DNA from: an uncultured Thiomicrospira sp.
GTDB taxonomy: Bacteria > Pseudomonadota > Gammaproteobacteria > CAKMZV01
DNA: 64,000 bases
Assembly: GCA_965195345.1 (NCBI GenBank)
Contig: OZ239628.1
Span: forward strand, 256,001 to 320,000
Direction of reading: 5' to 3'
The notes beneath the pieces are model-generated. The model had not been told where the DNA came from. It searched no databases and was given only the letters and a program-made list of their open reading frames with translations. A program made the translations under genes and the position numbers. How positions within the stretch are numbered: position 1 is the stretch's first letter; every line of letters begins with the position of its first letter. Of this stretch, positions 28,983 through 64,000 are shown in pieces.

Positions 28983-29299
28983 ATTAGGCAATACTCTGTG
29001 AAAAAAGACTTTTTTAAATAGTCATACTTCCTTTTCCAAGCACATAGGTGCGCAATCAACTGCGCGCGTGTAGAATCTCAACCTTAATTTCATGGTCTTT
29101 TTTAAAGCATTGATGCCGCTTTTACCTATCAAATATTGCCTTCTTCGTATCACTCTTTGCCGGCATATCGTCTTAAGATATTCTACTTTTATTTGCCTTA
29201 ATGTAAGAGGTATGGGTAAGGGAAAATGCTTTATAAAAAGCATCAAATGCAAAATATATATTTACATATATCAATCGCTTAATAGGTGTTATAAAAAAA

Positions 29300-29329
29300 A
29301 AGACATTAAGTTTAAACGTGCTGTATAAT
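29300..29329 (+). promoter_or_regulatory. Candidate sigma70 promoter for the giant gene
   Basis: AAGACA-N18-TATAAT with an A9 tract (29293-29301) at its upstream edge; would give a ~220-nt leader. Confidence 0.35.
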
Positions 29330-29555
29330 GAGATTTATTAGTGGCAGTGTTTTTAAGGTGGGTTGATGAAGTACGTTGATGCAAAGCTCCGTGTAAAGAG
29401 AAAATGCTCAGAAGGTAAGTATTGGAGTCAAACGTATAACCTACTAAACTCAGCAACTATGCGAGTTCAATTTAAGTAGACAGCGAGGATTTAATCCATT
29501 GGGTCAATAGATTGGAACAATTGAGTTGAAGAATTATTAGGAATAACAAGCAGGT

Positions 29556-32500
29556 ATGATTTTGCGCAAATTTGGCGATTTTCTCAAAAAAACATTGCAA
29601 AGCAGCATTGTTCTTTTTGTTGTCGCTTTTTATTCGCCCATAACCAACGCTAATCCGCCCGGCGCCTTTTATCTTGATTTAACAACCATCGAAGACAGTG
29701 CGGCATTTCCTATTTCGCATGGGCCATCTGGGACAAATAGTAGCTCCGGTGGAGGAACTCCAACATATTCTGTTAGCACAACCAATTTTGGCTTCGGAAC
29801 GGTTTCAATCAATAGCGCCAACGGAACGCTACTATTTGCTCGAGTGCCCGGTGGCTTTGGTGGACCAGTACCCATAACCGTAACGATATCCGATTTAAAT
29901 GGTACGGGAACGACTGTTCTCAACTATACAGTCACTGAAACCGAATATGTTCCAACGAGTCCAGTATTTACGATAAATTCTGCAGTCACAGATCTTAACG
30001 GTGTCTCTATCGGGTCTGCGGTGGGTTTGCTACAAGATGATGTTATTGAGCTCCGTGTTGGAAGCTCTATGACCAGATATGTAGTATTACAAAGTGCTAC
30101 TGGTGGCACTGCCAACGATGGGGAGAGTTCTAATTGGCCATCATCTCTTGCCAGCGCCTTTAATCTTGAGAATGGCGCTGGTGTTTTAGTGGGAGAATGT
30201 TCGCTAGGAGGGATTACTATACCTTCGGTATCGATACCTAATTCTTCTGCAATAAGCAGAACGCTTGATGACGAGTGTACATCCGGAGCAAATATCCCCA
30301 TTACAAGCACCTTCCAAAACGTTGTGCGTATAAACCGCAACGGTCCTATACCTTTAACTGCACCAATTTCCCTTACTTTATACCGCGCTCCACCGCTCGC
30401 TGTTTCAACGAACTCGGTGTCAGCAGATGCAGATTTCGGACTACCGATTGTTATTAATGCAACTGCCACTCGGGAAACCACTTCTTCTGCCAGTATTGGA
30501 CCCAGAATAGCATACACCGTCTCACAATCAGTACCAGGTGTTGTTGCGGTTACTTTTACAACAGGACAAATAATACTAACGTCCATACCTAATGCATTTG
30601 GTCAAACAACGCTTACTGTAGTAGCCGCAGGGGGCGGAGGTCTGCTTAGCACAACTGAGACAATTGCAGTTGCAATCGCAAGAATTAACGACCCACCAAC
30701 GATTGAAGTATCAACCAATGCGCTCACGCTGACTGAAGACTTTAGTCCGAATTTTGTCATTAACGTCACGGCAACCGACACGGAAGATGTGACACCAAAT
30801 TTTAGTGTTGTAGCATCCACAGATAGTATTGTCACATTTACGACATCACAAAACACGATCCAATTATCACCAGTTCTTAACGCTAATGGCGTGGTGACGC
30901 TGAGCATTTCTGTAGCTGACTCGTCTAATGTGATTACGACAACGCAAATAGTGGTGACGGTGCTTGAAGACAATGCACTATCGTTCAGACTGTCAACAAA
31001 TCAGCTTGTTATAAGTGAGAACGAAACGGACAGATTACAAAAAATAATTCTTTTCACAGATTTGGATATTCCACCCTCACAAATTCCCTCCCTCGGGTTA
31101 ACTGAGTTGACTGTGAGCATTACGGAGCGTGTAATTTCAGGGGACAACATATTTTCGACGAACCCAATATCAATTGCTACCTTTAGTAGCCGTAATCGTT
31201 CTACAATCTCTTTTATTGTTAGCGGTACTAATCTAATGGATTTAGCAGCCAGATCGGCTGTTTACTATATACAGAGACCAGACTCAGTGGGTGTTGGTGA
31301 AATTTCAGTTTCTATGCGCATTGAAAACGCTGGGACTGTTTTTACAGCTGTTGATACAATTGCTATTACAGTGGTGCCCGCCAACCATCCTCCAGTAATA
31401 ATACCACGTATTAGTGACTCATCAGGTTCCGTAGTTTCTGGAGGCGCTTTTTTCTATTACACAAGTACAGAGAACACGATAGAAGCGCATGCAAATAGAG
31501 TGGCGAACATAGCATCACCCGCCCGAGGATATTTGGGATTTTTCGAGACAGATGTGCAACGCACACAGGTAGAGTCTGTACGCCCAATTGCAAATAATAA
31601 TAATGAAATATTGGGAGTCGCTTCAACGGTAGTTGCCGGTTTAGGTGCAGGAGACGAAGCTTTTTATATCTTAAACAGCACACTGTTGACACGTTTTGGT
31701 GCATCTGGAGGAAGTTCAGGTACTACCGTCCCCGCTGCTGACGCATACGATATTGTCACGGCAATAGGTGTTGCGGCAGGTACCGCTTTGGGGAATGAGT
31801 ACTTACGGCGTGATGATACTGGCATCAGTTTTTTAAATGTGAGCTCAGGCCTTACAGATAGGGCTTTGTATCAGTTTAACGAAGGATTGGCATCGACCAA
31901 CTTAATCACTGTCGTTGCATTTGGAAACACGACCGCTACTAATTTCGTAACGCTAACAGGTTATGATTTAGATGGGACAGATGCTTTAGCATGGAGCGCT
32001 ACAGGAGCCGCTGGATCAGTGGGGCAACTTAACATAAACGTAGTGAATCAGACAAGAGGCGTGGAAGATGTAAGTTTGGACTTTATTCCTCCTGATGGGT
32101 TTTTGGGCAATTCCACTTTTGTAATAACGTTAAACGACGGAACCGGTAATAGCACAGTAACATCAGTCGTTGTATCAGTAGTTGAAGCCCCACCCACTTT
32201 TACCCTGACTACTTCAGCTGTAGTTGTTCCTGAAAATGCTACCGCACGGCAAACAATTGCTATCACTAATGTGGGAGTTGCTAATGGAGCTTCTGTAACG
32301 TTTAGTGTCACAACAGCAGGTGACTCTATTTTCAGTGGTGATCCTGCGCCAGCAGTGTCTTTCGACGACTTAGTGCAAGTGTCATCTGTGGTTAATGCGG
32401 CAACGACTGGTACCGCCAATTTGTATTACACACTAAGTCCCGACTCAACAGGAATAGGACAAATCATAATTACCTTAACGGAAAGTAATTCTGGGAGAGC

Positions 32501-59500: not shown

Positions 59501-62500
59501 CATAATTGATGATGAAGAATTTAATGTTGGTATTGAGTTGATTAGTGGAGGTGCAGAGACGACGAGTGGCCAAACGAGTAGTCCAATTGTTTTACGGGTA
59601 AGGGATTTGAATGGATTACTTAATTACAGTGCAAATCCGATTGCGTTTGATGTTACGTATTTAGGTGTTGCGCAAGCTGGGGTGGATTACACTACAGCAT
59701 CGATAATCATTCCAAGAGCGGCAAATGGAGTTGATGTTACACTCAATGTGATTGATGATGGGTTGTTTGAGTCTTCAGAGTCTCTTGAAGTGGTAATTGC
59801 AGCTCGTACTGCAAATAACAGAGTACTTGTTAATGCGAATTCGGTTAATGCTACGATAGAGGACAATGATCTTGTAACAACGGCTTCGCTTAGGATTATT
59901 CAAAATGGCTCAGAAAATGGAGACGATTTAATCGGGGAGTTGGTTATTGCACGCGCCAATAATACGCAGAACGCACTGAACTTTGAGGCGAAGAACATTG
60001 TGCGCCCAGGAAATGCAAGTGCTGCTGACTTCAACCCGTCCACGACGATGATAGCGTTGAGTATACCAGTCGGATCCAGTACGGTAGGCTTTTCAATTGG
60101 AATTGAGGATGATTCGTTTTTTGAAACAACAGAGACAGTTGAATTTAACGTCTCGGTTTTGAACTTCCCAGGCATTGGAGTGATTACATCTGAGAGGGGC
60201 TTTATTGAAGATAATGATGATGCAATTTTCACGTTAACACTCATTCGCGATGCTCAAGAGCGGGATCAAATCTCGGCGATTTTGAGAGCAAGCATCGGAA
60301 ATATTAATCAAACAAGCGCCAACATTGAGATTATGTATGCAACCGATTTGGGTGCGCAGTTGGGTAATGCGAGTTTAGCGGATATAACGCAGACGACGAT
60401 TCGTTCGGTGATTGCGATAGGTCAATCTTTCCAAGACATATTGGTTACCCCAGTGGATGATGATTTGTTTGAATTGACTGAGATTTTCAATATTAGAGCG
60501 GTGGGCGCAAGCAATGCAGATGTAGCGTTGATGAGTAGCTCAATAGTTGTCTCAATTATTGATGATGATACAGCGACGTTCACATTGCGAACGGTGCAAG
60601 ATGGCAGTGAGTCTCAGGCCGGTTCTTCGATAGGCAATATTATTTTGGAATTGGCTTCTGATCGAGTGAATAATTCTTCGCAAACGGTTCGATTTGAAGT
60701 TGGCGTTGTTGGGGGAACTGCCTCGCATTCGAGTAGTGCGTTGGATTTTGATTTTTCCACTGCAACGTTGGAAATACGCAGTGGCGAAACGAGTCAATCT
60801 CTCGAAGTAGACGTTAGAAACGATGCTCTTTTTGAAACAACGGAGACGGTAGACTTTTCATTGGTGTCAGTTACTCCGATTGATCCTCTAATAGTGCATT
60901 CGAGCACGCCCACGATAGCATTGATTTCTGATGCAAATGCGCCAATTACAGCGGGATTAATACTTTCAGGTGCGTCAGAGAATCCGAATGTTGCTATCCA
61001 AGTTGGTGTGCAATTGCCTGAGATTAATAACACGGCATCAGCAATAGATTTTATGATTTCTTTTGCGAACTCTTCGGCAACCGCAGGGGTTGATTTCATT
61101 TCAAGCGATGTTATCACATTAAGCATTCCAACGGGCTCAAACAGTGTAACAACGAGCCTTGTGGTGATTGAAGATGGATTGCTTGAAGCCGATGAGATTG
61201 TGATTGCAGAGATAATTGCTATAAGCAATGGGGGAGTTTTAGGTATTAATACCACGCAATCGATTCTTATCGTAGATGCTGATATACGAAACGCTCAGTT
61301 GTCGTTGGATGGGATTACAGCGGGAAATGAGGAGGGACTTGTTCCTGCGGTGTTTAGATTGTCAATAAGTAGTACGAATCAAATAGGAACTGCTATTGTT
61401 TTTGATCTTGAAGTAAACTCGAGTGCATCAAGCGCAGAATTAGGTGCTGATTACACGTTTGCGCCAATGCAAGCTCGGATACTCAATGGCAGTAGTTTTG
61501 TGGACATAGTGTTGCCTATTTTGCAGGATACGCTCTATGAAAGTACCGAGTACATAAGCATAGGTATAAGCACGACAAATATAAGTCAATTAAATGTTCC
61601 AAGCACGTTTTCATCAGTTGCAATAATTGATAATGATACGACAACGATATCATTTACGAGCATTACTCCAGGTGCGGAGAATAATTCTTCACCGGCGACA
61701 ATTCCCATACGGATTTTTGTGGCATCGGCGAAGGTAAATAATACATCTATGGCACTGCAGTTTGAATTAGAGAATGTGGGGGGCAGTGCAACTGGAGTGG
61801 CTACTCAAACGTTCAACGCTGATTATCTCTCGAGCGATCTAATTATTAGTATTCCAGTTGGTTCGAGTACGGGGCTGCTTGAGGTTGAGGTATTCGATGA
61901 CAGTCTTTTTGAGACGACGGAAACGGTAGTGTTTGAAGTCTTAGATCCTGTTTTTATGGGCGGAATGTTTACGAGCACGGTGATCACTGCGCAAATAATA
62001 GATGACAATGATATTTTTGTTACGGCATTTTATTCAGAGGTCCAAAGCGGGGGAGAAGGCATTACAGAAGTAGGTGATCCGTTTGATGCCATTGTTCGAG
62101 TTCGATTGAGTAGATTTAATAATACGTCACAAGATGTGGTGTTAAGTTATACATTAGGTGGTTTAAATTCGGATGCCATTGGTGGATTAGATTATGTTAT
62201 TCCAACAAGTAGACAATTAATCATTCCTCCCGGTGCGGTAGATAGCACATTTGCAATTACGATTTTGGATGATTTCTTGGTTGAAAAGCGTACGGAAATT
62301 TTAAATGTCTCTTTTGAATCGAGCATGAGTAATGTAAGTACTGGCGCTGGATCGGTCAGTTTGGGGATACAAGATAACGAAGCTCGCAGAGTGCGCATTG
62401 ATGTAATTCAGGATGCGACTGAAGGAGTACCACCTGCAGGAGTGCCTGCAATTGTGAAGGTAACGCTTGTAAACAGCTCAGGCAATGCATTGATAAATGG

Positions 62501-64000
62501 CGCAGTGAATGCGGGCCAGAATTTGGATTTTCTATTCGGTGTTGATTTCCAAGAAATTGAAGTGGTTCAGGACAATGCCAGTGACATTAGTATTAACGGT
62601 GTAGTTTCAGTCAATCCTCAAGATGTTCCATTCATTATTCAAAGGGGACAAAGCTCGGTTACGAGGAATATTATTGCACTGGATGATAATAGCTTTGAGC
62701 TTAACGAGTCTGTAGAAGTATCTTTCAATGATTCTGCATCGATTGCCAGTGTGGGAACCTTTATAAGGGATCCGTCAACGGCATCATTCACTATTACTGA
62801 TTCGATCATTCCTGGGATACGCATTCTGGCAGTATCTGATGGAGCTGAGACGGCCCCTGGTGTGGCGCCACAACCGGCACAATTTTTGGTTGAATTTTAC
62901 AATTCGCAGACTGATGCGGCGTTACTTAACATCACAGGGGCACCTATAGACCTCCAGATTGCTATTGCACCGAACAGCGTTGCAACAACACAAGATGTGA
63001 TTTTCCAACCAGATGTTTCGATTCAAAACAATTCGACGAGTCAATTAGTCTCTATAGCTATTGTGGACGATCGGTTGTTGGAGTCGACAGAAACACTGAT
63101 TGTGGAAATTTCTACTGTTCTAACAGCGTTTGATTCATTAGCGTTGGATCGTTCAACGTCTGCAAGTGTTTTAATCATAGACAATGATAATGCGTTCGTA
63201 ACGATTCGAGGCATAGTTGACGGTGTTGAGTCACCTAATTCGGATGCGGTATTTGAGCTTGCACTGGTGTCGGAAGATGGTTTATTAATTACCAATAATT
63301 CGACACAAAATGTAGTGGTTGGTGGCTTTATTTTGGGGGGTACTGCAAGCGATACATTGGACTTTGAATTAAATGTGTCGAGTGTAGATATCTTGATTGG
63401 TGCTAGCACAGAGATCATTGCCGTACGTATATTAGATGATAATTTGTGGGAGGGTACTGAGACGATTGAATTGTCTGTGTCAAGCGTGGTGCATCCTGCG
63501 GTGTCTCTTGACGATAATAATACGGGAACGGTTGATATCATAGATGATGAGAATGCGCCGGGTGCTCGAAGGGCATCACTCACCTTCGTCCAAGTACCAG
63601 GGGTTAATCAGTTTGAAGACAGCACACTGACCTTTAGGGTGAGTAGCGACTTGGTGAATAATACATCGCAATCAGTTGAAGTGCCTTATGCGATTGATCA
63701 AAGCGTTTTAAATGCGGTTGATTTAACAAGCGATTTCATAACTCCTCCGACGGGAACTTTTTTAATCAATGTGGGAGCAAGTACGGGCGATATTGTATTG
63801 GTTGGACTAGAAGATACTGCTCCAGAACCGATTGAAATATTGGAGATGCAAATATCGACTTCTACAACCCACCCTGCGTTGATTCCTTTGGCAGGGCAAT
63901 CATCGGTAACGCTTCAAATATTTGATCGGGACAGTGATAGTATTGTTGTGAGGATGGAGGCATTAGGAGGAGTCGAAGGTGGTTCGATGATTTTCCGAGC
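29556..64000 (+). CDS. Giant repetitive surface protein/adhesin (at least 11,481 aa, 3' end beyond window): signal peptide, C-type-lectin-like, cadherin-like and Calx-beta/Ig-like domains
   Basis: ATG at 29556 reads MILRKFGDFLKKTLQSSIVLFVVAFYSPITNA-NPPG. The same frame gives sensible protein at every spot checked (30.2, 31.4, 33.4, 37.2, 42.8, 48.4 and 63.96 kb: ...MEALGGVEGGSMIFR). The ORF track lists no closed + ORF in this frame, implying no stop. Confidence 0.93.
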   Translation, partial: MILRKFGDFLKKTLQSSIVLFVVAFYSPITNANPPGAFYLDLTTIEDSAAFPISHGPSGTNSSSGGGTPTYSVSTTNFGFGTVSINSANGTLLFARVPGGFGGPVPITVTISDLNGTGTTVLNYTVTETEYVPTSPVFTINSAVTDLNGVSIGSAVGLLQDDVIELRVGSSMTRYVVLQSATGGTANDGESSNWPSSLASAFNLENGAGVLVGECSLGGITIPSVSIPNSSAISRTLDDECTSGANIPITSTFQNVVRINRNGPIPLTAPISLTLYRAPPLAVSTNSVSADADFGLPIVINATATRETTSSASIGPRIAYTVSQSVPGVVAVTFTTGQIILTSIPNAFGQTTLTVVAAGGGGLLSTTETIAVAIARINDPPTIEVSTNALTLTEDFSPNFVINVTATDTEDVTPNFSVVASTDSIVTFTTSQNTIQLSPVLNANGVVTLSISVADSSNVITTTQIVVTVLEDNALSFRLSTNQLVISENETDRLQKIILFTDLDIPPSQIPSLGLTELTVSITERVISGDNIFSTNPISIATFSSRNRSTISFIVSGTNLMDLAARSAVYYIQRPDSVGVGEISVSMRIENAGTVFTAVDTIAITVVPANHPPVIIPRISDSSGSVVSGGAFFYYTSTENTIEAHANRVANIASPARGYLGFFETDVQRTQVESVRPIANNNNEILGVASTVVAGLGAGDEAFYILNSTLLTRFGASGGSSGTTVPAADAYDIVTAIGVAAGTALGNEYLRRDDTGISFLNVSSGLTDRALYQFNEGLASTNLITVVAFGNTTATNFVTLTGYDLDGTDALAWSATGAAGSVGQLNINVVNQTRGVEDVSLDFIPPDGFLGNSTFVITLNDGTGNSTVTSVVVSVVEAPPTFTLTTSAVVVPENATARQTIAITNVGVANGASVTFSVTTAGDSIFSGDPAPAVSFDDLVQVSSVVNAATTGTANLYYTLSPDSTGIGQIIITLTESNSGRAYSQTVTVTVESINHTPVITQYFADHQFIDRGIIRAQVVGGDLFAARGEYTGVSATTATDGTGSYQEQLDFARSLGGTLVEFDSIEVYNALFGNILTSDTRSVPLPGADIDNDRFWIGVTAAPDRFGDPTFPRVAGDRLFYHLTGQLLSNGFDADRVEVPGVYIGWGVNSPAEVGGNICVDLIIVPVSGFDPWASDTCIAGAGGFVVFGLLKAVMQFPDGLASTSLVSVRAQVNSTVTVNISGYDLDGADSPLSWTVSAGPELQSVAQDITTSNVDVQAGAETLRVVFPLPLNFVGRTTLTVTLNDGLLTTSAQITVLVENDPPTIDVSTNLITLNEDFSPNFVINVTATDREDGVLAFSVSTGGSVVTLSQITTDSITLSAIPNANGTVTLTFTATDSIALAATTEVVVTVNPINDPPTIEVSTNLITLNEDFSPNFVINVTATDTEDGVLTFSVSTGGSVVTLSQITTDSITLSAIPNASGIVTLTLTATDSGVLTATTEVVVTVNSINDPPTIDVSTNALTLNEDFSPNFVINVTATDTEDGVLAFSVSTGGSVVTLSQITTNSITLSAIPNVSGIVTLTLTATDSGGSAATTEVVVTVNPFNDPPTIEVSTNLITLNEDFSPNFVINVTATDTEDGVLAFSVSTGGSVVTLSQITSNSITLSAIPNANGIVTLTLTTTDNLGFTTTAQVVVTVNPINDPPTIEVSTNTLTLDEDFSPNFVINVTATDTEDGVLAFSVSTGGSVVTLSQITTDSITLSAIPNASGIVTLTLTATDSGVLTATTEVVVTVNSINDPPTIDVSTNALTLNEDFSPNFVINVTATDTEDGVLAFSVSTGGSVVTLSQITTNSITLSAIPNVSGIVTLTLTATDSGGSAATTEVVVTVNPFNDPPTIEVSTNLITLNEDFSPNFVINVTATDTEDGVLAFSVSTGGSVVTLSQITSNSITLSAIPNANGIVTLTLTTTDNLGFTTTAQVVVTVNPINDPPTIEVSTNTLTLDEDFSPNFVINVTATDTEDGVLAFSVSTGASVVTLSQITTNSITLSAIPNASGIVTLTLTATDSGVLTATTEVVVTVNSINDPPTIDVSTNALTLNEDFSPNFVINVTATDTEDGVLAFSVSTGGSVVTLSQITTNSITLSAIPNVSGIVTLTLTATDSGGSAATTEVVVTVNPFNDPPTIEVSTNALTLNEDFSPDFVINVTATDTEDGVLAFSVSTGGSVVTLSQITTDSITLSAIPNANGIVTLTLTATDSGGSAATTEVVVTVNSINDPPTIDVSTNALTLNEDFSPDFVINVTATDAEDGVLTFSVSTGGSVVTLSQITTDSITLSAIPNVSGIVTLTLTTTDSIGVAATTEVVVTVSPINDPPTIEVSTNLLTLIDNVASFVINATATDTEDGVLAFSVSTSSLVTVSQITTNSFTLIPVIDAIGTATLTVSAVDSGTLRASTEIVVLVRPFNNTPTLTLSTNVVTVFENYAAFNILAVSNDVEGPAGEFGITAQGQPPGAPRIRIRFGNLSSRTTSNGLFEATQVIQIDSGVADGFTLPLTVTGTIFTRDSTSGDITRLTATQLFTMIVLENGNAGFQVSTDSVTVREGGVSSTFAVSLTSQIDPGGSINLIPSPAMFGLPTQELTFNPPSLTFTNADGIASQTITVSAVDDFIDEDTETIVVSFTVTSTNSIGQAYIADAGAVPTLNVSVIDNDTAGISVSPLALTVSEAGGMATIAVRLDAQPESTVVINVSTTGVFIREFVKTVTVSDVLLSFTSLSWQTPQTITITGQDNDFDDGTQMVAVSFASTVVSGADTNTQSHWAGAQSQLATVPVTILDDDTASVVVSALSTNVLRESVANDSLTFTIRLGARPFDPVTGNIGLLNELVGGLVDSTLSTTRLSFSTGTSSWQTLQTVTVTVLDDDFDDGTRITTLTISASSAEFGFNNVPTQTRVYQTLDDDTRGLFVNPSSLTVTEGSATSAFEVRLTSRPFGSVVDVSFSSEHSFVFGTDVPNQSFLSTSNIQFGTNASDWQTPQTITVTAFDDFVDDGTQTSTYTLNVSGGDYGPSENATLTVLALDDDTAGFVVAPLFTTLIEAASAAAADRSDVIEIRAQSQPTGTITLLVNTTSSDGSDQLTLSNSSASSNSSIRLSFTSQTWNTPLLFTVTAIDELINDDGAHTTVSFSVDTTGVISGYSAATPLDPVRVAITDNEGSGFQVSPSSVTVSEGGGFSTFAVSLTSQIPAGGVIYLTPSPEMVGLSTQELTFNPSSLTFTNANGLAAQTITVFAVDDFIAEDTETIAVSFTVTTADPVGQTYISNPDFTPSTLSVRIIDNDTAGISVSPSALTISEAGGMATIAVRLDAQPESTVVINVSTTGVSLLDVEKSVTLSNALLSFTPYPSLSWQTPQTIMVTGQDDDFADGTQTVSVSFASTVVSGADTNTQSHWAGAQSQLSTVPVTILDDDTASVVVSALSTNVLRESVANDSLTFTIRLGARPLSTVTVVVGLMNELVGGLVDSTLSATRLSFSTSASSWQTPQTVTATVLDDDFDDGTRNTTLTISASSIQPAYNELATQTRVYQTLDDDTRGLSVNPLNSTVTEGGATSTFEVRLTSRPFGSVVDVSFSSEHSFVFGTDVPNQSFLSTSNIQFGTSASSWQTAQTITVTAFDDFVDDGTQTSTYTLNVSGGDYGPSENARLTVSALDNDTAGFVVAPLFTTLTEASGASQTDEIEIRAQSQPTGTITLLVNTASSDGLDQLTLLNSSASSNSSIRLTFTSQSWNTPLLLTVRAIDESFNDVDAHTTVSFSVDTTGVISGYSAATALDSVRVAIIDNENAGFQVDPGSVTVSEDGSSATFAVSLTSQIRGGGSINLTPTPEMVGLSTQELTFDPPSLTFTSANGLASQTMTVFAVDDFIDEDTETIAVPFTATSTDTIGQQYIEDPSFMASTLNVTIIDNDTAGISVSPLALTISEAGGTATIAVRLDAQPESTVVINVSTTGVNFSEFVKTVTLSDVLLSFTSLSWQTTQTITLTGQDNDFFDATQTVSVSFASTVVSGADTNTQSHWAGAQSQLSTVAVTILDDDTASVVVSALSTNVLRESVANDSLTFTIRLSSRPFNQVNVDVGLLNELVGGLVDSTLSATRLSFSTGTSSWQTPQTVTVTVLDDDFDDGTRNTTLTISSVSSNDPAYNALADQTRVYQTLDDDTRGLSVNPLNLTVTEGGATSTFEVRLTSRPFGSVVDVSFSSEHSFVFGTDVPNQSFLSTSNIQFGTSASSWQTAQTVTVTAFDDFVDDGTQTSTYTLNVSGGDYGPSENATLTVLALDDDTAGFVVAPLFTTLTESASSNQDVIEIRAQSQPTGTITLLVNTTSSDGSDQLTLSNSSASSNSSILLAFTSQSWNTPLLLTVTAIDELINDDGAHTTISLSVDTTGVISGYSAATALDSVRVAIIDNESPGFQVRPPSVIVSEDGSSVTFGVSLTAQIAAGGSIVLIPSPEMFGLSTQELTFNPASLTFTSANGLASQTMTVSAVDDFIDEDTETIAVPFTATSTNTTGQAYIADADFTFSTLSVNVIDNDTAGISVSPLALTVSEAGGTATIAVRLDAQPESTVVINVSTTGVNFSEFVKTVTLSDVLLSFTSLSWQTTQTITLTGQDNDFFDATQTVSVSFASTVVSGADTNTQSHWAGAQSQLSTVAVTILDDDTASVVVSALSTNVLRESVANDSLTFTIRLSSRPFNQVNVDVGLLNELVGGLVDSTLSATRYIFSTGTSSWQTPQTVTVTVLDDDFDDGTRITTLTISSVSSNDPAYNALADQTRVYQTLDDDTRGLSVNPLNLTVTEGGATSTFEVRLTSRPFGSVVDVSFSSVHSFVFGTDVPNQSFLSTSNIQFGTNASSWQTAQTITVTAFDDFVDDGTQTSTYTLNVSGGDYGSSEDETLTVSALDNDTAGFVVAPLFTTITESASSNQDVIEIRAQSQPTGTITLLVNTTSSDGSDQLTLSNSSASSNSSIRLSFTSQTWNTPLLFTVTAIDELINDDGAHTTVSLSVDTTGVISGYSAATPLDPVRVAIIDNESPGFQVRPPSVTVSEDGSSATFGVSLTAQIAAGGSIVLIPSPEMFGLSTQELTFDPPSLTFTNANGLASQTMTVFAVDDFIAEDTETIAVPFTATSTNTTGQAYIADADFTFSTLSVNVVDNDTAGISVSPSALTISEAGGMGTIEVRLDAQPESTVVINVSTTGVNFSEFVKTVTVSDVLLSFTSLSWQTTQTITLTGQDNDFDDGNQTVSVSFASTVVSGADTNTQSHWAGAQSQLSTVAVTILDDDTASVVVSALSTNVLRESVANDSLTFTIRLGSRPFNLVNVDVGLLNELVGGLVDSTLSATRLSFSTGTSSWQTLQTVTATVLDDDFDDGTRITTLTISSVSSSDPAYNELATQTRVYQTLDDDTRGLSVNPLNSTVTEGGATSTFEVRLTSRPFGSVVDVSFSSVHSFVFGTDVPNQSFLSTSNIQFGTSASSWQTAQTITVTAFDDFVDDGTQTSTYTLNVSGGDYGPSENATLTVLALDDDTAGFVVAPLFTTLTEALGQDQNEIIEIRPQSQPTATITLLVNTTSSDGSDQLTLSNSSASSNSSILLTFTSQSWNTPLLLVITAIDELINDDGAHATISLSVDTTGVISGYSAATPLDPVRVTIIDNERPGFQVSPSSVTVSEDGVSAIFGVSLTAQIAAGGSIVLIPSPEMFGLSTQELTFNPSSLTFTNANGLASQTMTVSAVDDFIDEDTETIAVSFTATSTNTTGQAYIADADFIFSTLNVTIIDNDTAGISVSPSALTVSEAGGTATIAVRLDAQPESTVVINVSTTGVNFSEFVKTVTVSDVLLSFTSLSWQTTQTITLTGQDNDFDDGTQTVSVSFASTVVSGADTNTQSHWAGAQSQLSTVAVTILDDDTASVVVSALSTNVLRESVANDSLTFTIRLGSRPFDPVTVDVGLLNELVGGLVDSTLSATRLSFSTGTSSWQTLQTVTVTVLDDDFDDGTRNTTLTISSVSSNDPAYNALADQTRVYQTLDDDTRGLSVNPLNSTVTEGGATSTFEVRLTSRPFGSVVDVSFSSVHSFVFGTDVPNQSFLSTSNIQFGTNTSDWQTPQTITVTAFDDFVDDGTQTSTYTLNVSGGDYGPSENATLTVLALDDDTAGFVVAPLFTTLTEASGASQTDEIEIRAQSQPTGTITLLVNTTSSDGSDQLTLSNSSASSNSSILLEFTSQSWNTSLRLTITAIDELINDDGAHTTISLSVDTTGVISGYSAATSLDSVRVAIIDNESPGFQVSPSSVTVSEDGVSSTFGVSLTAGLGAGGSIVLIPSPEMFGLSTQELTFNPSSLTFTNADGLATLTMTVFAVDDFIAEDTETIAVPFTATSTNTTGQAYIADADFTFSTLSVNVIDNDTAGISVSPLAVTVLEAGGTATIAVRLDAQPESTVVINVSTSAISPLAFTGGVNFSRTQIFFSPHPSTAWMDTQTLTVTAINDDFDDDTQTLTVSFASTVVSGADLNTQSHWAGAQSQLSTALITILDDDVAFVSLSTTDLGIIYEQAAGGITQTTFEVSLSTIPIADVEVSFAQVFSAPSTELLNIPSITFPAFISGAFSSQTITVRAFHDMEDDDTQVVSILLNASGTNSYSTALEIDTVTVTVIDLDVRGVTATPTTLTVSEDGLEGGFASTALFTVVLDSRPFFATGVAQTVVLNSTLVSSFIGASAATSQQITFSPRTLVFNRSNWDIAQQVLVTAVDNVIDEGTQQSTITLGASGGDYLSGVNEDEVVVTVLDEDEAGVLVVPTSLTVTEDQTISPSAVFLVRLLTQPNALVSVGVFSTINTTSPDTGQVFGVPQITLETSSQAISSESVTLDFTALNYFVTQTVTVRAIDDSLNDETQITTVALSIVSTPNSGYNSALEISSVRVTVLDDENAGFVFSTQTLSLIEGESDSIRVRLRSQPTQDVQLNARYTLNGLTTSELTFTPDTLIFTSVTWDIEQNVIVLAVDDFVDEDEEVVQGSFNAISSDTSYINSSDFLGDTLTLTITDNDTAGITFTTDQLVIGEVSSILSTVAMFGIRLDAQPESTVVLTLSTRVLSVSPGFSTSQIGSSFDISTLRLTYAPFPSTSWQTTQIVTLNAIDDFYDDDTQTFTLSAQSTVLLTADTNTRNHWSGSNAQFASLDVVVVDEDVAGIIARVVGAPLSVSEEGESTQVIEVRLSAQPFEEVPILSDTSINYTILSNGRTSEVILINSTFSFNTLVSGIGSWQSTQSFVAQGVEDFVDDDTQTFVLSIRTTNTIDPKYQFVDEQSTLGLSIDNDVAELLLSANSTPLTVIDALFDPNNGATFSTFSVRLATEPVNDVTLLAFSTSATLGVIDSAMRTLSFTSLNWDRAQVVTLQGVPDIPPSTDPTQSFTVRVEVSSLTVDLAYSSPTRVQAEEIDAININDDLPGFTISPLQLSLVERSQSQSTGVYQIRTNTAPSGNDAVLTIRTSTQNAGFNPELTLSDGTTQTTQTTLELRFTAGVISTIAVTVSVVDDHALIGADRLFVNFHSSTGGNGFYIFDETELSEVNISVGDDETIDGVNAFITKIADGNEGVSSQAGANVVIGDEEPVEFRTGLRNINTDQIVTNRTGGVIVFDTTITGGRVALGGSSATGSADIDIVTFEHSIIDGSTSVLQTWPTLEDPAFEGYPDEEAIEVGLILRTTTLRIFTANATATADVIDNDNFQVGLRIVNTENGAESELNDRPVIFEGSMSLANYTGSTIVLSVNYVEVPGGAIPQFSRTSGFDYFTETSPHILILAGHTTGQFLVEVFDDLIFENTEEVQVEILNPDPNSSVFVVIGGGAIGTIEDNEDLQVGLSVITGNESAGTMTFRVFLNRENNTGSTLNFDVFSTQAVGFALSTSRRATFNTDYSFGGLSAQRASVAVNALDTTGPITLIDDDLLEGTESFYLSLSLDPVGLDPNIVSRIIVSTTPVEGFIVDDEASRVRLRLYAESIGVEGVGTIGAVGGTAVRFIAVIEDTLDATTITNATGETIELNALAISTSQAILGLDYTTQAILIASGTGFVEVRYPVLNDDLFEHDETLGIEIRSVTSPFSDIQEAFGSGGNIAPASRPSIDTLIDDAQDEPGSIEIHLSATPLSINEGPLGGSGGAFSVDVRLFRVGNSTTSIINSGHAPEVIPLIISGTAQQGTDYRFGVPTTTLMIVPGSDRGVVDIEVLGDNLAEGLIPETIVLRAVEGFYAGVRDDALTLADSGASTLVLEIVDDDSNIIASIESLDPNVSEGSSMRISVNLDFAVQGTTVTVTLGYPTGPLGGSAVPGIDFSSATTAVVFPQEVRTVIVEIPVYIDNLFETTEQAVISILSTTDSEGVLNVTTDTARSELAVNIIDAEQSDVALEIRVEDGFENQSGSSTPIQIFATLRRISTNALIRTEGALAISLGITSTNNRVTTAEPGVDFDGSFLNRQRQIEILSNTSSASLSINVINDNLFENNESIFFTTTQFMRISDRLNLLNIIPVTTDIRAIIFDDIAPGSIVSTLTILTDGFESSSATLSRDVIARITIDETNNTGAPILFFLDSINSDAVGATQAGPGVDYVFPSSVGISTGSDFVEFSLIVLDDSLFESTETLEIRISSANNTAILVDQTIVTGLIGDDEFYAGLQAGIVVSSSSLVLDESSSSTPVVLTLLLSSTNNTNASITMSVITSGSAIAGLDYQAMSAFVVGVGSRTGDLSFFGIDDGFLETTETIEVSLGQSNIATVVPVSSTSSLGTSSVRILVVDDEAARGIYIGTRNAQLIGEEGSSTRQIGFDVVLLSTNVGSVPVLRNNTSSDLTFSIRAAFSDPSHAIQGLDYLIQGGNLANTEVVIAQGSTSVRVAIAVIDDSLLETRIETSTLIVRGSSRQDFIRNALSGHAVDIEIIDNEFGQTSARLLSVAGVEGSSTRQTQFVVELNQVSGLSEALEVEISLSEITATEGLDYSTNRISAQILRGSNRGVAQVPVLSDSLLENTESLLGTAIYDAQSNNQIPITFENTTAQVDILDAESLNGVSVIIEQTTTGVEGINGNAAVARVSLAQGVVNGLNTSLSLTVQAQSGTGTATLSGFNQDFESSALGANSAIIGPNLSGVDLRIPIRDDQLLEGDEFFVLVANSPSNPALRTSTSSAVIWIIDDESFPGAVSAQFAVGANGIEGTQAIEFVLNLSRVNGRSEPIVFGLTAVGGSANVGALRDLEISPTNTSQQIMIPPNRAFAQVSIPINQDDLLEGTETVQVRIDVLDPPLFVSNGTFAYVSNVNIVQATISDDEVNQDIRLEISSVTQGGEPNTTINVVVDLIRGITGLPIVNNTGQAINFSLATTGTSLGGLEQTPNVDFINDNLFGSILPGSSSGVVRITIANDFIIESTETILITPEVVHPFVRAGASTETIIIDDDFGNYVVRFALSAPIVEGAGTSNLVVSLSQADPNSTHVITLQPIGGSASLNDDLILSTLSVSLAPGQSSGVIEVRAPDDGLLEGVEEFSFRINVDETVLTLLSNTLTLSIQDNDPIILSIREGPDVNESGSIPARFELFLPSTNNTGAAISAELSFEESIALEGIDFNVSTTLYSILPGASRVFIDLPILDDAINEIDEPIVARIIRITSEQGLLGRSVATLRILDDDEGANTYYVVSDANGSESGGNGGFGFPAVGRLLSADPVVGAQRLNLFYSGNATPGLDYQAVVAATLPNASTEVIFTIPIIDDFLYETQETIILRLDSPLAHRSTTLLTITDNDVNSAQLQVLDGMEGSTPLTVIINLAKFNNTPRAITYLVTLSGDSSQGVPAASASDFLGSITSTLSIAQGASSGSVQFPVLLDSRFEMVEGVRVSLQAITNPDISFPINTTTSRIFDAFSSTLAVSITAISNGEEFTSKPIEYVVSVNTTNNSASTIGVTVQVSTANSTAEEGADYILTRNVFIGIGERTATLNVTVINDNLFESTETLTLEISSVDVAFAAIDQPRSIATASIIDDEEFNVGIELISGGAETTSGQTSSPIVLRVRDLNGLLNYSANPIAFDVTYLGVAQAGVDYTTASIIIPRAANGVDVTLNVIDDGLFESSESLEVVIAARTANNRVLVNANSVNATIEDNDLVTTASLRIIQNGSENGDDLIGELVIARANNTQNALNFEAKNIVRPGNASAADFNPSTTMIALSIPVGSSTVGFSIGIEDDSFFETTETVEFNVSVLNFPGIGVITSERGFIEDNDDAIFTLTLIRDAQERDQISAILRASIGNINQTSANIEIMYATDLGAQLGNASLADITQTTIRSVIAIGQSFQDILVTPVDDDLFELTEIFNIRAVGASNADVALMSSSIVVSIIDDDTATFTLRTVQDGSESQAGSSIGNIILELASDRVNNSSQTVRFEVGVVGGTASHSSSALDFDFSTATLEIRSGETSQSLEVDVRNDALFETTETVDFSLVSVTPIDPLIVHSSTPTIALISDANAPITAGLILSGASENPNVAIQVGVQLPEINNTASAIDFMISFANSSATAGVDFISSDVITLSIPTGSNSVTTSLVVIEDGLLEADEIVIAEIIAISNGGVLGINTTQSILIVDADIRNAQLSLDGITAGNEEGLVPAVFRLSISSTNQIGTAIVFDLEVNSSASSAELGADYTFAPMQARILNGSSFVDIVLPILQDTLYESTEYISIGISTTNISQLNVPSTFSSVAIIDNDTTTISFTSITPGAENNSSPATIPIRIFVASAKVNNTSMALQFELENVGGSATGVATQTFNADYLSSDLIISIPVGSSTGLLEVEVFDDSLFETTETVVFEVLDPVFMGGMFTSTVITAQIIDDNDIFVTAFYSEVQSGGEGITEVGDPFDAIVRVRLSRFNNTSQDVVLSYTLGGLNSDAIGGLDYVIPTSRQLIIPPGAVDSTFAITILDDFLVEKRTEILNVSFESSMSNVSTGAGSVSLGIQDNEARRVRIDVIQDATEGVPPAGVPAIVKVTLVNSSGNALINGAVNAGQNLDFLFGVDFQEIEVVQDNASDISINGVVSVNPQDVPFIIQRGQSSVTRNIIALDDNSFELNESVEVSFNDSASIASVGTFIRDPSTASFTITDSIIPGIRILAVSDGAETAPGVAPQPAQFLVEFYNSQTDAALLNITGAPIDLQIAIAPNSVATTQDVIFQPDVSIQNNSTSQLVSIAIVDDRLLESTETLIVEISTVLTAFDSLALDRSTSASVLIIDNDNAFVTIRGIVDGVESPNSDAVFELALVSEDGLLITNNSTQNVVVGGFILGGTASDTLDFELNVSSVDILIGASTEIIAVRILDDNLWEGTETIELSVSSVVHPAVSLDDNNTGTVDIIDDENAPGARRASLTFVQVPGVNQFEDSTLTFRVSSDLVNNTSQSVEVPYAIDQSVLNAVDLTSDFITPPTGTFLINVGASTGDIVLVGLEDTAPEPIEILEMQISTSTTHPALIPLAGQSSVTLQIFDRDSDSIVVRMEALGGVEGGSMIFR
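33459..36870 (+). repeat. 12 tandem 285-bp (95-aa) cadherin-like repeats
   Basis: NDPPTI units start at 33459, 33744, 34029, 34314, 34599, 34884, 35169, 35454, 35739, 36024, 36309 and 36594. Consensus NDPPTIEVSTN.LTLNEDFSPNFVINVTATDTEDGVLAFSVSTGGSVVTLSQITT.SITLSAIPN..GIVTLTLTATD...ATTEVVVTVNPI. The last copy is divergent. Confidence 0.95.
37245..49140 (+). repeat. Six full plus one partial ~1,857-bp tandem units, each five Calx-beta/Ig-like domains (A-E)
   Basis: GFQV anchor at 37245, 39105, 40968, 42822, 44676, 46533 and 48390 (periods 1860, 1863, 1854, 1854, 1857, 1857; all multiples of 3). Domains end in DNDT/DDDT/DNE and carry TV.AVDD..D and W.TPQT motifs. Confidence 0.95.
52230..64000 (+). 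repeat. Array of roughly 30 divergent Calx-beta-like domains (protein-level repeats)
   Basis: Recurring DG.E...F...L...NNT...G.A..G.DY...I..G....I...DD.LFE.TET....I.DD[DE] every ~120-135 codons, with little DNA identity between copies. Confidence 0.8.

Follow-up and report, generated by a model that had tools for sequence, protein, structure and literature searches.

The window that we analysed, a stretch of 64,000 nucleotides, corresponds to positions 256001-320000 of C1, the single gap-free contig (1,920,693 bp, no N) of a genome with a completeness of 99.71%. From an ATG at position 29556, a frame on the forward strand stays open to base 63998 (11,481 aa, 3′ open, in an ORF listing that includes open ends), and since an in-frame stop lies at 29544, this ATG is the first possible start. 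When we translated the frame on the full contig, there was no in-frame stop before a TAA at C1:328627-328629, so that the gene as assembled extends 8,629 bases past the window end, to C1:328629, and has 43,074 nt encoding 14,357 aa, 80% of it within the window. The predicted product has a mass of 1.504 MDa and a pI of 4.05, with 1,712 D+E against 432 K+R and a 30-fold depletion of lysine; its 28 Lys and 404 Arg would give tryptic peptides with a mean length of about 33 aa. HMMs iterated from the protein's own repeats found 101 modules, and four more were found by the 95-aa model alone, giving 105, of which 88 end within the window part. A sequence-only reading of this DNA had described the frame as still open at the window end, as encoding roughly 90 modules and more than 1 MDa, and as absent from its ORF track, and all of this agrees with what we found. 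The last point has a trivial cause: the ORF list omits frames that leave the window end, so the giant ORF cannot appear there. In practice, such genes will escape any gene caller or ORF track that discards frames extending past the end of a window or contig. From the base composition, 14,357 stop-free codons would arise by chance with a probability of about 1e-391, which rules out a pseudogene or a chance frame. The locus thus holds a gene that is real and intact and that encodes a very acidic, lysine-poor fibre of 14,357 aa, whose location at the cell surface is predicted. Occupying 2.2% of the 1.92-Mb genome, the gene is costly for a streamlined marine bacterium. The features are as follows (window coordinates unless marked C1).

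29300..29329, +, promoter-like site (AAGACA, 18 nt, TATAAT; 10/12 in a consensus scan) in the leader of 573 nt that separates ggt from the giant gene
29556..64000, +, portion of the giant ORF inside the window, aa 1-11,481 of 14,357 (ORF listing and whole-genome translation)
29556..29651, +, predicted Sec-type signal peptide, aa 1-32, read directly off the translation
29652..30386, +, tip at the N-terminus, aa 33-277; a single Cys pair (215/241), no recognisable fold
30387..31049, +, two cadherin-like 95-aa modules, aa 278-498 (own-repeat HMMs)
31050..33455, +, head unit present twice, aa 499-877 and 878-1300 (internal duplication), each copy Ig-like, middle domain, Ig-like
31392-31901 and 32547-33173, +, head middle domains, possibly C-type-lectin-like
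33456..37100, +, cadherin-like/Big_9 array, 12-13 modules of 95 aa, aa 1301-2515 (Pfam, TRF)
33611..36880, -, two antisense open frames within the 95-aa array, 33611-35581 (656 aa) and 35606-36880 (424 aa) (ORF listing)
37230..48746, +, homogenised Calx-beta array, 31 modules, aa 2559-6397 (own-repeat HMMs, internal duplication)
48744..64000, +, array of 57 diverged Calx-beta modules, aa 6397-13,547, window part to aa 11,481 (own-repeat HMMs; one-to-one with the ortholog in genome G004)
C1:1,102,583-1,103,053, mrtJ, flanked by bioC-like and proC-like genes, about 775 kb from the giant gene
C1:1.53 Mb, type II secretion genes, GspD at 516.9 bits and GspE at 672.8 bits, each exceeding its cut-off

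The predicted signal peptide has a basic n-region (R4, K5, K11, K12), a hydrophobic core and then T-N-A, with no lipobox Cys. The tip that follows it would be the distal end of the molecule if the protein is C-terminally anchored. In Pfam this tip matched GbpA_2 alone, at an E of 0.003 that lies below the cut-off of that model; a PDB sequence search of aa 1-500 gave nothing significant (best E 0.017), and BLAST found no match for aa 33-277 in the G004 ortholog. The NCBIfam model tand_rpt_95 (NF012211) scored 36.9 bits on the giant protein against a cut-off of 90. The head unit has eight paralogs with 46-48% identity in a gene array at C1:760-830 kb, and this genome encodes a large family of paralogous stalk-and-head proteins that contain the same head modules. 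The Lectin_C domain named in the sequence-only reading found no confirmation at a significant level, and the leads are weak. An atlas look-up of the head gave 26 lectin leads among 30 hits (score 0.93, from just 158 shared features), while Pfam Lectin_C (PF00059) appeared in six of 12 head-family members at E <= 10 only (best 0.019) and was missing from the giant itself. In a PDB profile search with the middle domain, the top match was the mannose-receptor CTLD, at a non-significant E of 0.16. A protein homolog search with the middle-domain alignment, over lengths of 93-366 aa, found none at E <= 1e-3, and the PADLOC defence models had no match on head or tail. The AlphaFold model of the head unit at aa 871-1300, built on a 12-row alignment, had a mean pLDDT of 49.3, with the middle domain below 50, and was unusable for fold assignment. 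We call the middle domains possibly C-type-lectin-like, from these sequence leads.

The stalk begins with the 95-aa array, in which Pfam matched Big_9, with 25.3-37.6 bits against a cut-off of 23.6, and Cadherin_4, with at most 30.5 bits against 25.1, over aa 1,300-2,450 (cadherin-like/Big_9 families PF17963 and PF17803), together with K319L PKD. In DNA the array consists of 11.6 copies of 285 nt according to TRF, organised in 855-nt super-units that are up to 98.8% identical, and it contains the longest exact repeat, of 556 nt, at 33856/34711. The remainder is mostly Calx-beta, with 88 such modules in the whole protein (31 homogenised and 57 diverged, by own-repeat HMMs). The homogenised array, as assembled, is made of 6.2 super-repeats of five modules, each of about 1,857 nt, which are 91-96% identical in DNA and whose lengths are multiples of 3 in six of six cases. 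Among the six super-repeats the mean dN/dS was 1.10 (range 0.71-1.65), so that the copies show no purifying selection at the level of residues, which counts against the favoured reading given below.

Many 260-aa segments between aa 2,600 and 13,550 matched Pfam Calx-beta (PF03160), several of them above the 27-bit cut-off (57.3, 44.4, 38.0 and 35.4 bits) and many below it. A profile built from 62 module pairs, when searched against the PDB, recovered CBD12 of NCX1 (3us9) at an E of 2.9e-21 and CALX (3rb7) at 1.3e-16, with the acidic motifs of the modules aligned to DDDxFE and DDD of NCX1. The AlphaFold model of one module pair, aa 9866-10102 (window 59151-59861), reached a pLDDT of 94.5 and a pTM of 0.83; all of the first ten Foldseek matches of this model were CBD12 of NCX1 or CALX, and the single-domain match to 2dpk had a TM of 0.74 and an rmsd of 3.0 over 124 columns. 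Five acidic positions were scored in the 88 Calx-beta modules: all five are kept in 32, four in 24, three in 26 and two in six, so that 56 of 88 retain at least four. By position, E87 is acidic in 87 of 88 modules, and D83 and E18 in 82 each. Most Calx-beta modules thus retain the acidic residues that coordinate Ca2+ in Na+/Ca2+ exchanger domains, and Ca2+ binding is predicted on this ground. The sequence-only reading had seen mainly Ca2+-binding beta-sandwich modules, which fits the Calx-beta and cadherin-like/Big_9 matches, with Ca2+ binding itself predicted. The giant shares the fold, the acidic Ca2+-site motifs and the tandem arrangement with the CBD1-CBD2 pair of NCX1 and with Drosophila CALX (PDB 3us9, 3rb5/3rb7, 2dpk). 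However, the exchanger domains number two and regulate a eukaryotic transporter from the cytoplasm, whereas in the giant 88 copies form a stalk that is presumably extracellular.

An ortholog occurs in G004, a genome of the same family and another genus, with a frame of 14,116 aa and 95 modules. When the protein from aa 6401 on was cut into 79 segments of 100 aa, 63 had a collinear best match in the ortholog at a mean identity of 40.2%, while four had no match and 12 matched off the diagonal. The collinearity spans about 8,000 aa, and an equally long, collinear ortholog in another genus indicates that length itself has been kept. In the G004 protein the stalk and anchor are the same, but the head consists of NHL repeats (47 bits). 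A search of genome contigs for related loci with the single giant protein found no relative, and among 401 sampled genomes of the class the frames that carry the anchor module range from 87 to 6,826 aa, compared with about 14,360 aa here. A homolog search with a 2,500-aa query, over protein lengths of 4,376-5,000 aa, gave three weak matches to the TSP3 part and by its length range cannot reveal other giants.

The C-terminal region, which lies beyond the window, contains TSP3-type Ca2+-binding repeats, an anchor domain and a tail composed of a Gly-rich stretch, a Cys, a hydrophobic helix and a basic cluster, as read from the translation and alignments; a TM segment and basic cluster are present at the extreme C-terminus. 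A PDB sequence search of the TSP3/pre-anchor region gave nothing significant (best E 0.052), and the atlas look-up of the C-terminal domain led to unnamed clusters (best score 0.88). The tail resembles JDVT-CTERM (NF033191) yet falls just below the model cut-off of 27, with 25.3 bits (E 1.1e-5) and, in a second search, 23.1 bits. It has a Cys at the aligned position and a second Cys six residues on, and NK replaces DP; the DP is kept in the tail of the G004 ortholog, which is above the cut-off at 28.5 bits, and is DW or DS in other relatives. We chose 21 relatives of the C-terminal part, of which 12 have JDVT-CTERM at E <= 0.01 (nine above the cut-off) and 16 have choice_anch_U (NF041766), their homology to the giant reaching an E of 1e-71; choice_anch_U had no match in the giant itself at E <= 0.1. 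The alignment of these relatives has an invariant core, DGGxNDxD...GGC.

The protease that goes with such tails, MrtJ (NF033192), is encoded in this genome at 88.8 bits against a cut-off of 75, which none of 14 control genomes exceeded, and the motifs EExxxR, FxxxH and HxxxN are invariant in three copies of the family. Across this bacterial family the protease goes together with JDVT tails: G000, G003 and G004 have both, and the searches of G001 and G002 yielded neither. In the available portion of the preprint that describes it (Haft, bioRxiv 10.1101/2023.06.07.544157), JDVT-CTERM has a single invariant Cys, with a nearly invariant DP nine residues later in a Leu-rich helix, and the client adjoins mrtJ in 16 of 17 cases, 'typically once per proteome'. 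The giant is like these proteins, and like those with choice-of-anchor U, in its tripartite tail (Cys motif, helix, basic cluster) after a DGGxNDxD domain, in the above-cut-off MrtJ of its genome and in having C-terminal relatives with JDVT-CTERM and choice_anch_U. It differs in a tail that scores under the cut-off, contains two Cys and NK for DP, and is encoded about 775 kb from mrtJ; together with the missing choice_anch_U match in the giant itself, these points speak against the sorting reading. At least two clients occur in this genome (the second of 2,868 aa) and 28 tails above the cut-off in G004, as against one per proteome in the part of the published account available.

Taken together, these data lead us to a reading to which we give a probability of about 0.7: the protein would be a Ca2+-stiffened, C-terminally anchored fibrillar adhesin of about 0.4-0.5 µm, with Ca2+ binding, surface location and adhesion predicted from sequence. 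A rod length of hundreds of nm is also what the sequence-only reading had inferred. The Sec system would export the chain and the C-terminal helix would retain it in the inner membrane, where MrtJ may cut the tail at a probably lipid-modified Cys, as myxosortase MrtX does on MYXO-CTERM proteins. The chain would then reach the cell surface, with the type II system as the probable route, and would keep its C-terminal attachment. Ca2+ from seawater could occupy the sites at the module junctions and stiffen about 105 modules into a rod of about 0.4-0.5 µm, which would project the variable and possibly lectin-like N-terminal head from the cell towards a ligand carried by particles, algae, hosts or other cells. 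The template for this mechanism is TraA and its protease: according to the accessible part of the report, cleavage, predicted lipidation and T2SS-dependent surface display characterise the MYXO-CTERM/MrtX system (Guo, Haft and Wall, mBio 2025, PMC11980579), which shares with ours a Cys-containing C-terminal tag and a homologous CPBP protease. MYXO-CTERM/MrtX is the sole route of its kind shown experimentally, and that of the giant is proposed by analogy. The two differ in phylum, tag model and protease subfamily, and the MYXO-CTERM clients are of ordinary size.

We consider it unlikely, though worth serious weight, that the fibre is at the surface but is no adhesin. It could be a Ca2+-stiffened spacer, coat or matrix scaffold that lacks a specific ligand and might keep off grazers or phages or give structure to a biofilm; alternatively, cleavage by MrtJ could release it into the medium. 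Such a role would agree with a tip (aa 33-277) that has no recognisable binding fold, and the extreme acidity and lysine depletion would suit a protease-resistant, Ca2+-loaded coat. The lectin call was not significant and the head model failed, which counts against the adhesin reading. Release has a parallel in BapP of Pseudoalteromonas tunicata, which was partly in extracellular fractions according to the portion of its report available (PMC12153261). However, the head is what differs between the orthologs (NHL repeats in G004), and its modules recur in the large family of stalk-and-head proteins of the same genome, a pattern typical of ligand-binding tips. Against release, the conserved Cys-containing tail would favour retention, by analogy with MYXO-CTERM.

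It is improbable, in our judgement, that the gene is real and its length partly an assembly artefact, with the two homogenised arrays (33456-37100 and 37230-48746) expanded, collapsed or mis-ordered; were this so, the true length of the protein could depart from the assembled one by hundreds to thousands of residues. The 556-nt exact repeat, the 855-nt units at 98.8% identity and the 1,857-nt units at 91-96% would favour such errors, and contigs from public runs (Logan) are short inside the arrays and break up there, one X1 contig joining 46002 back to 38566. On the other hand, over window 33000-52999 these contigs show no insertions or deletions (X2 in 30 of 30 bins, X1 in 28, X5 in six and X6 in five). 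The genome is a single gap-free contig of 99.71% completeness, the super-repeats differ by 4-9%, which is sufficient to place long reads, and all unit lengths are multiples of 3. Moreover, the G004 ortholog, from a separate genome, is of nearly equal length, and errors of this sort cannot touch the diverged part of about 8,000 aa.

The ice-binding adhesin MpIBP (1.5 MDa) from Marinomonas primoryensis has a stalk of about 100 tandem beta-sandwich modules rigidified by Ca2+, from which ligand-binding domains are projected. Like LapA and SiiE, it is a T1SS substrate with RTX repeats, an N-terminal retention module and a ligand-binding region near the C-terminus. The giant resembles MpIBP in having about the same mass, a long stalk of Ca2+ modules, high acidity and a marine setting, and an HlyD-type T1SS protein is encoded in the genome (347.9 bits), but we rejected a type I-secreted RTX adhesin of the LapA/MpIBP kind, with the C-terminus exported first and an N-terminal retention module, as very improbable, since HemolysinCabind had no match at E <= 0.01 in 110 overlapping windows of the protein, its C-terminus is a TM helix with a basic cluster and not a T1SS signal, its N-terminus looks like a Sec signal peptide, and no T1SS gene lies in the annotated 29 kb upstream or 9 kb downstream (21 neighbours scanned). 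Relative to MpIBP, LapA and SiiE, the polarity of the giant is reversed, with a C-terminal anchor and an N-terminal head, and RTX repeats are absent.

The best reading is that the giant is an extreme but recognisable bacterial adhesin, of a kind that is already known. BapP is a Ca2+-dependent adhesin needed for biofilm formation and attachment and, as far as the available portion of its report goes (mBio 2025, PMC12153261), it is similarly marine and gammaproteobacterial, with Calx-beta and BIg_9 repeats, a distinct head at its N-terminus and, by prediction, a Sec signal. However, it has 12 repeats against about 105 in the giant and adjoins a putative T1SS, and that portion describes no C-terminal sorting tail. 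In surveys of very large proteins, as far as their accessible text goes, the giant fits the 'large' class of at least 10,000 aa and the bacterial surface/attachment group, whereas the Omnitrophota giants, of up to 85,804 aa and with many transmembrane regions and SecA-like domains, are far larger (West-Roberts et al. bioRxiv 10.1101/2023.11.21.568195; Dias et al. PMC11573180).

More tentatively, and with doubt outweighing confidence, we suggest that JDVT-CTERM/MrtJ could be a general, unlinked housekeeping sortase for many large adhesins in this small-genome family of marine Gammaproteobacteria. A lipid on its last Cys would then anchor the giant, which would cross the outer membrane and be displayed as a 0.5-µm Ca2+-rigid 'fishing rod' with interchangeable heads (lectin-like or NHL propeller), its reach being under selection as well as its tip. 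As part of the same suggestion, the stalk may have evolved under two regimes, one holding about 57 diverged Calx-beta modules in an order that is constant between genera, the other a concerted evolution that keeps about 31 copies alike. The observations behind the sortase proposal are the 28 tails in one genome and the 14,000-aa protein in two genera. If it is true, no C-terminal sorting protease would have a larger proposed client than the 1.5-MDa fibre. The published picture of JDVT-CTERM also widens here, from one client and an adjacent protease to many unlinked clients. The gene offers a natural test of the export and C-terminal-tag anchoring of a protein of such size in a Gram-negative cell, of how far Ca2+ stiffens a chain of about 100 modules, and of why one half of the stalk has been homogenised when the modules of the other remain diverged and in order.

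The sequence-only reading had also placed the gene in a core-gene setting (ggt), with the upstream side free of mobile-element or secretion genes. This is correct for the neighbourhood, where all 12 upstream ORFs of at least 300 aa are core genes (ggt at 27333-28982) and no mobile-element or secretion genes were found among the 21 neighbours scanned (29 kb upstream, 9 kb downstream annotated); genes for export and anchoring are encoded elsewhere in the genome. As for synteny, ggt and epmA are not adjacent to giant frames in G001 or G002, and in G003 and G004 they are on other contigs or were not found. No Rfam family matched window 28900-29700 at E <= 1, and the promoter-like site in the leader is weak, since the consensus scan gave four sites against 2.5 +/- 1.9 in shuffles. 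Pfam found nothing above a cut-off on either of the antisense frames, which are most likely by-products of the repeats and outside the gene. The GC3 of the giant gene is 0.372, compared with 0.33-0.41 in four adjacent core genes.

The plus-strand frame that opens at ATG 29556 of the window is real and continues beyond it. It occupies 29556..63998 within the window (11,481 aa, without a stop, in an ORF list that keeps open ends), and translation of the contig placed an in-frame stop just ahead of it at window position 29544 and its TAA terminator at C1:328627-328629, C1 being the single contig of this uncultured Thiomicrospira sp. genome (1,920,693 bp, zero N, completeness 99.71%). The full gene measures 43,074 nt and encodes 14,357 aa, 80% of it lying in the window; at the frame's base composition, the chance of meeting no stop over such a length is about 1e-391. 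The sequence-only reading had called the frame hidden from the ORF track, which is true, and the sole cause is that ORF lists leave out frames overrunning the window end, so that such a list has no place for this one. Its interpretation as a Ca2+-type surface fibre was essentially right as well: judged from its sequence, the predicted protein belongs, at an extreme length, to the Ca2+-dependent fibrillar surface proteins, a known class. Proteins of more than 10,000 aa are described as rare yet documented, with a maximum of 85,804 aa (West-Roberts et al., bioRxiv 10.1101/2023.11.21.568195), among huge bacterial proteins, those of surface and attachment are given as the second main class (PMC11573180), and for BapP, a smaller Calx-beta/BIg_9 adhesin, a role in attachment is reported to have been demonstrated (PMC12153261). 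What is unusual here is the Calx-beta stalk, the C-terminal anchor combined with an N-terminal head, a polarity reversed relative to that of RTX adhesins, and the variant JDVT-type sorting tail. Within the limited set of literature searched by title listing, no title dealt with this gene or with any giant JDVT client.

Domain layout of the 14,357-aa protein (gene on the plus strand)
aa 1-32: Sec-type signal peptide without lipobox Cys, read by eye
aa 33-277: N-terminal tip, no family recognised
aa 278-498: two cadherin-like modules
aa 499-1300: duplicated unit of Ig-like, middle and Ig-like domains, two copies
aa 1301-2515: 12-13 modules of 95 aa, with Big_9, Cadherin_4 and K319L-PKD matches above cut-offs
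aa 2559-13,547: 88 modules of about 123 aa
aa ~13,550-13,650: TSP3-type repeats (TSP3_bac, 51 bits vs a cut-off of 25), then further repeats
aa ~13,960-14,310: conserved domain with three Cys pairs
last ~45 residues: tail with Gly run, Cys, hydrophobic helix and basic cluster

Self-comparison of the protein, together with HMMs built iteratively from its repeats, gave 101 beta-sandwich modules and four more by the 95-aa model only; 88 of these 105 end within the part encoded in the window, close to the "roughly 90" estimated earlier, and the cadherin/Big_9 modules suspected there score above the Pfam cut-off in aa 1301-2515. Cadherin-type domains span about 4.5 nm per module and, if this value is assumed throughout, the rod would be about 0.4-0.5 um long. 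The computed mass is 1,503,809 Da, in keeping with the predicted size of over 1 MDa, and the pI is 4.05 (D+E 1,712 vs K+R 432). The D+E share is ordinary (11.9% vs 11.4% in the genome's other 300-999-aa frames) and Lys is depleted about 30-fold (28 of 14,357 residues, 0.20%, vs 6.00% in those frames), so the acidity stems from the missing basic residues. There are 14 Cys, in seven close pairs confined to head and anchor; aa 1300-13,547 hold none.

The stalk modules, which had been read as Calx-beta, are indeed so by profile and by modelled fold. Pfam Calx-beta matches are scattered over the 123-aa modules, many of them under the 27-bit cut-off and several above it, up to 57.3 bits. A profile built from 62 tandem module pairs matched PDB entries 3us9 (E 2.9e-21) and Drosophila CALX 3rb7 (E 1.3e-16), tandem Ca2+-binding domains of the Na+/Ca2+ exchanger, with whose acidic motifs the module motifs DD..E..E and I.D.D align. 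The AlphaFold model of one module pair (aa 9866-10102) reached pLDDT 94.5 and pTM 0.83; in Foldseek against the PDB its ranks 1-10 were all NCX1 or CALX, with a single-domain match to CBD1 (2dpk) at TM 0.74. In NCX1, acidic residues at five core positions coordinate Ca2+, and among the 88 modules all five are kept in 32, four in 24, three in 26 and two in 6. Ca2+ binding by these modules is predicted from sequence and model.

Within the repeated head unit, the middle domain is possibly C-type-lectin-like, which we regard as a lead. In a language-model look-up, 26 of its 30 nearest clusters belonged to the Lectin_C set (score 0.93, 158/256 shared features), and the top two PDB profile matches were to the macrophage mannose receptor CTLD over the helix-to-"WIGL" region, at a non-significant E of 0.16-0.19. 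The Lectin_C module named in the sequence-only reading survives as such sub-threshold leads: Pfam Lectin_C gave no match in the giant's own middle domain and reached 6 of 12 paralogs at E <= 10 only (best E 0.019, not significant). Structure prediction of the head unit gave no usable fold, and a homologous-protein search found no stand-alone relatives of the domain. Eight paralogs of the head unit at aa 871-1293, 46-48% identical to it, lie together in a gene array at C1:760-830 kb. We also observed that 13 open frames of 1,179-2,658 aa lie in a row at C1:760,672-835,648, with Ig-like and head modules like those of the giant and one shared C-terminal ending, ...GINGDQ.D.S..AGAVYLY; frames of at least 1,000 aa make up 10.9% of the genome.

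At the other end, the tail matches the NCBIfam model of the JDVT-CTERM sorting tag (NF033191) with E 1.1e-5 and 25.3 bits (23.1 bits in a whole-genome search), under the 27-bit cut-off. In its published description, the tag carries one invariant Cys, followed nine residues on by an almost invariant DP, a helix rich in Leu and a cluster of Arg; a proteome has about one client, encoded next to the CPBP protease MrtJ in 16 cases out of 17 (bioRxiv 10.1101/2023.06.07.544157). The giant's tail has the JDVT-type Cys, helix and basic cluster, but it carries a second Cys and NK where DP is expected; its ortholog in G004, a genome from another genus of the family, shows the canonical DP, with a score of 28.5 bits. 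One MrtJ (NF033192) is above cut-off in our genome (88.8 vs 75 bits; a 156-aa ORF) and, in contrast to the published pattern, its gene lies about 775 kb from that of the giant, with bioC-like and proC-like neighbours identified by reading translations. In both genera mrtJ is directly downstream of the bioC-like methyltransferase gene (locus L003:462-1794, C1:1,101,721-1,103,053, in our genome; locus L049:1-740 in G004), which places it in a conserved housekeeping context and not next to a client. The motifs EExxxR, FxxxH and HxxxN are invariant in all three family copies. MrtJ and JDVT tails co-occur in our genome, in G004 and in G003 of the same family, whereas the same-genus genomes G001 and G002 lack both, as well as the giant's anchor. 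Against the published pattern of typically one tail per proteome beside its protease, G004 has one MrtJ and 28 JDVT-CTERM tails above the NCBIfam cut-off, spread over many contigs (e.g. C24:257410-257517 and C25:38066-38173) and many of them on frames of 1,000-2,250 aa. Our genome also encodes a second JDVT client, a cadherin-repeat protein of 2,868 aa.

When the C-terminal 707 aa were used in an exhaustive search, 595 representatives were returned at E <= 0.001, and from these we chose 21 whose match extends into the terminal domain or tail. JDVT-CTERM was found in 12 of them at E <= 0.01 (nine above cut-off), a choice-of-anchor U domain in 16, and GlyGly-CTERM-like tails, by eye, in three to five others. 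The choice_anch_U model had no match in the giant itself; an invariant DGGxNDxD...GGC core is common to it and the aligned relatives. The anchor module occurs in 61 of 401 sampled genomes of the class, on frames of 87-6,826 aa compared with about 14,360 aa for the giant.

For export, the genome encodes adjacent type II secretion genes at C1:1.53 Mb (GspD 516.9 bits, GspE 672.8 bits, above cut-offs) and also an HlyD-type T1SS protein; Pfam found no RTX repeats in 110 windows of the giant, which ends in a membrane helix at its C-terminus. Experimental work on a tag of this type exists for MYXO-CTERM only: there, cleavage of TraA by MrtX is reported to be Cys-dependent, and lipidation and a type II system are predicted requirements for surface display (PMC11980579). 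By analogy with this precedent, we propose that the giant would be sorted along a comparable route.

Of the 31 genomes searched, namely our own, four further members of its family and 26 belonging to other families of the class, only G004 had a strong match to the C-terminal 707 aa (42% identity, E 4e-148), within a 14,116-aa open frame holding 95 modules; G003 gave a weak match only, and G001 and G002 none. An upstream stop 34 codons from the contig end indicates that the G004 frame is essentially complete. When aa 6401 to the end were compared with it in 79 segments of 100 aa, 63 had their best match on one diagonal (mean identity of collinear segments 40.2%), 12 were off-diagonal and 4 unmatched. 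The homogenised arrays of the two genomes match many-to-many at about 50%, a signature of concerted evolution inside each genome. The heads differ: the G004 N-terminus consists of NHL repeats (47 bits), and the giant's first 300 aa had no BLAST match in G004. Other very long frames with related head modules occur in G001 and G002 (12,231, 7,019, 6,717, 6,547 and 5,897 aa, among others; example loci are G002 C1:1,203,113-1,218,685 and G001 C1:215,955-230,798).

The core-gene setting noted earlier, ggt included, holds: all 12 upstream ORFs of at least 300 aa are core genes (malate synthase G, ArgJ, LeuS, FabD, FabH, PlsX, SelO, GyrB, RibBA, NusA, IF-2 and GGT). Downstream lie three small family-less ORFs, EpmA, a Gcw_chp-like ORF below cut-off, UppP, YifB, an 828-aa ORF and TrmL. 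The 828-aa ORF, between yifB and trmL (L001:14839-17325, plus strand, in the locus extracted at the giant; 6.2 kb past its stop), had no NCBIfam match at E <= 1e-5 and no Pfam match at E <= 1e-3. The 573-nt leader holds one promoter-like site and no Rfam match. The gene's GC (44.1%) and GC3 (0.372) fall inside the range of the neighbouring core genes, so that nothing in its composition points to recent transfer.

Modules 1-31 of the Calx-beta stalk are organised as 6.2 super-repeats, each of five modules and about 1,857 nt, with pairwise DNA identities of 91-96%; the 95-aa array comprises 11.6 copies of 285 nt, its 855-nt super-units reaching 98.8% identity, and the longest exact repeat within the gene is 556 nt. 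Contigs from public sequencing runs aligned over window 33000-52999 showed no indels, with 30/30 bins covered by X2 and 28/30 by X1. Since these contigs are short and one from X1 links 46002 back to 38566, what they confirm is the sequence of the arrays, not how many copies there are. Each of the six super-repeats has a length divisible by 3, and dN/dS among the six 1,857-nt copies (window 37230-48746) averages 1.10 (range 0.71-1.65), which indicates that the copies are without purifying selection at the residue level while the frame is nonetheless kept: change is relaxed or diversifying inside a frame kept open. The 95-aa array also contains two antisense open frames, at window 33611-35581 (656 aa) and 35606-36880 (424 aa), both on the minus strand; neither matches a family above cut-off, and they are probably a by-product of repeat composition.
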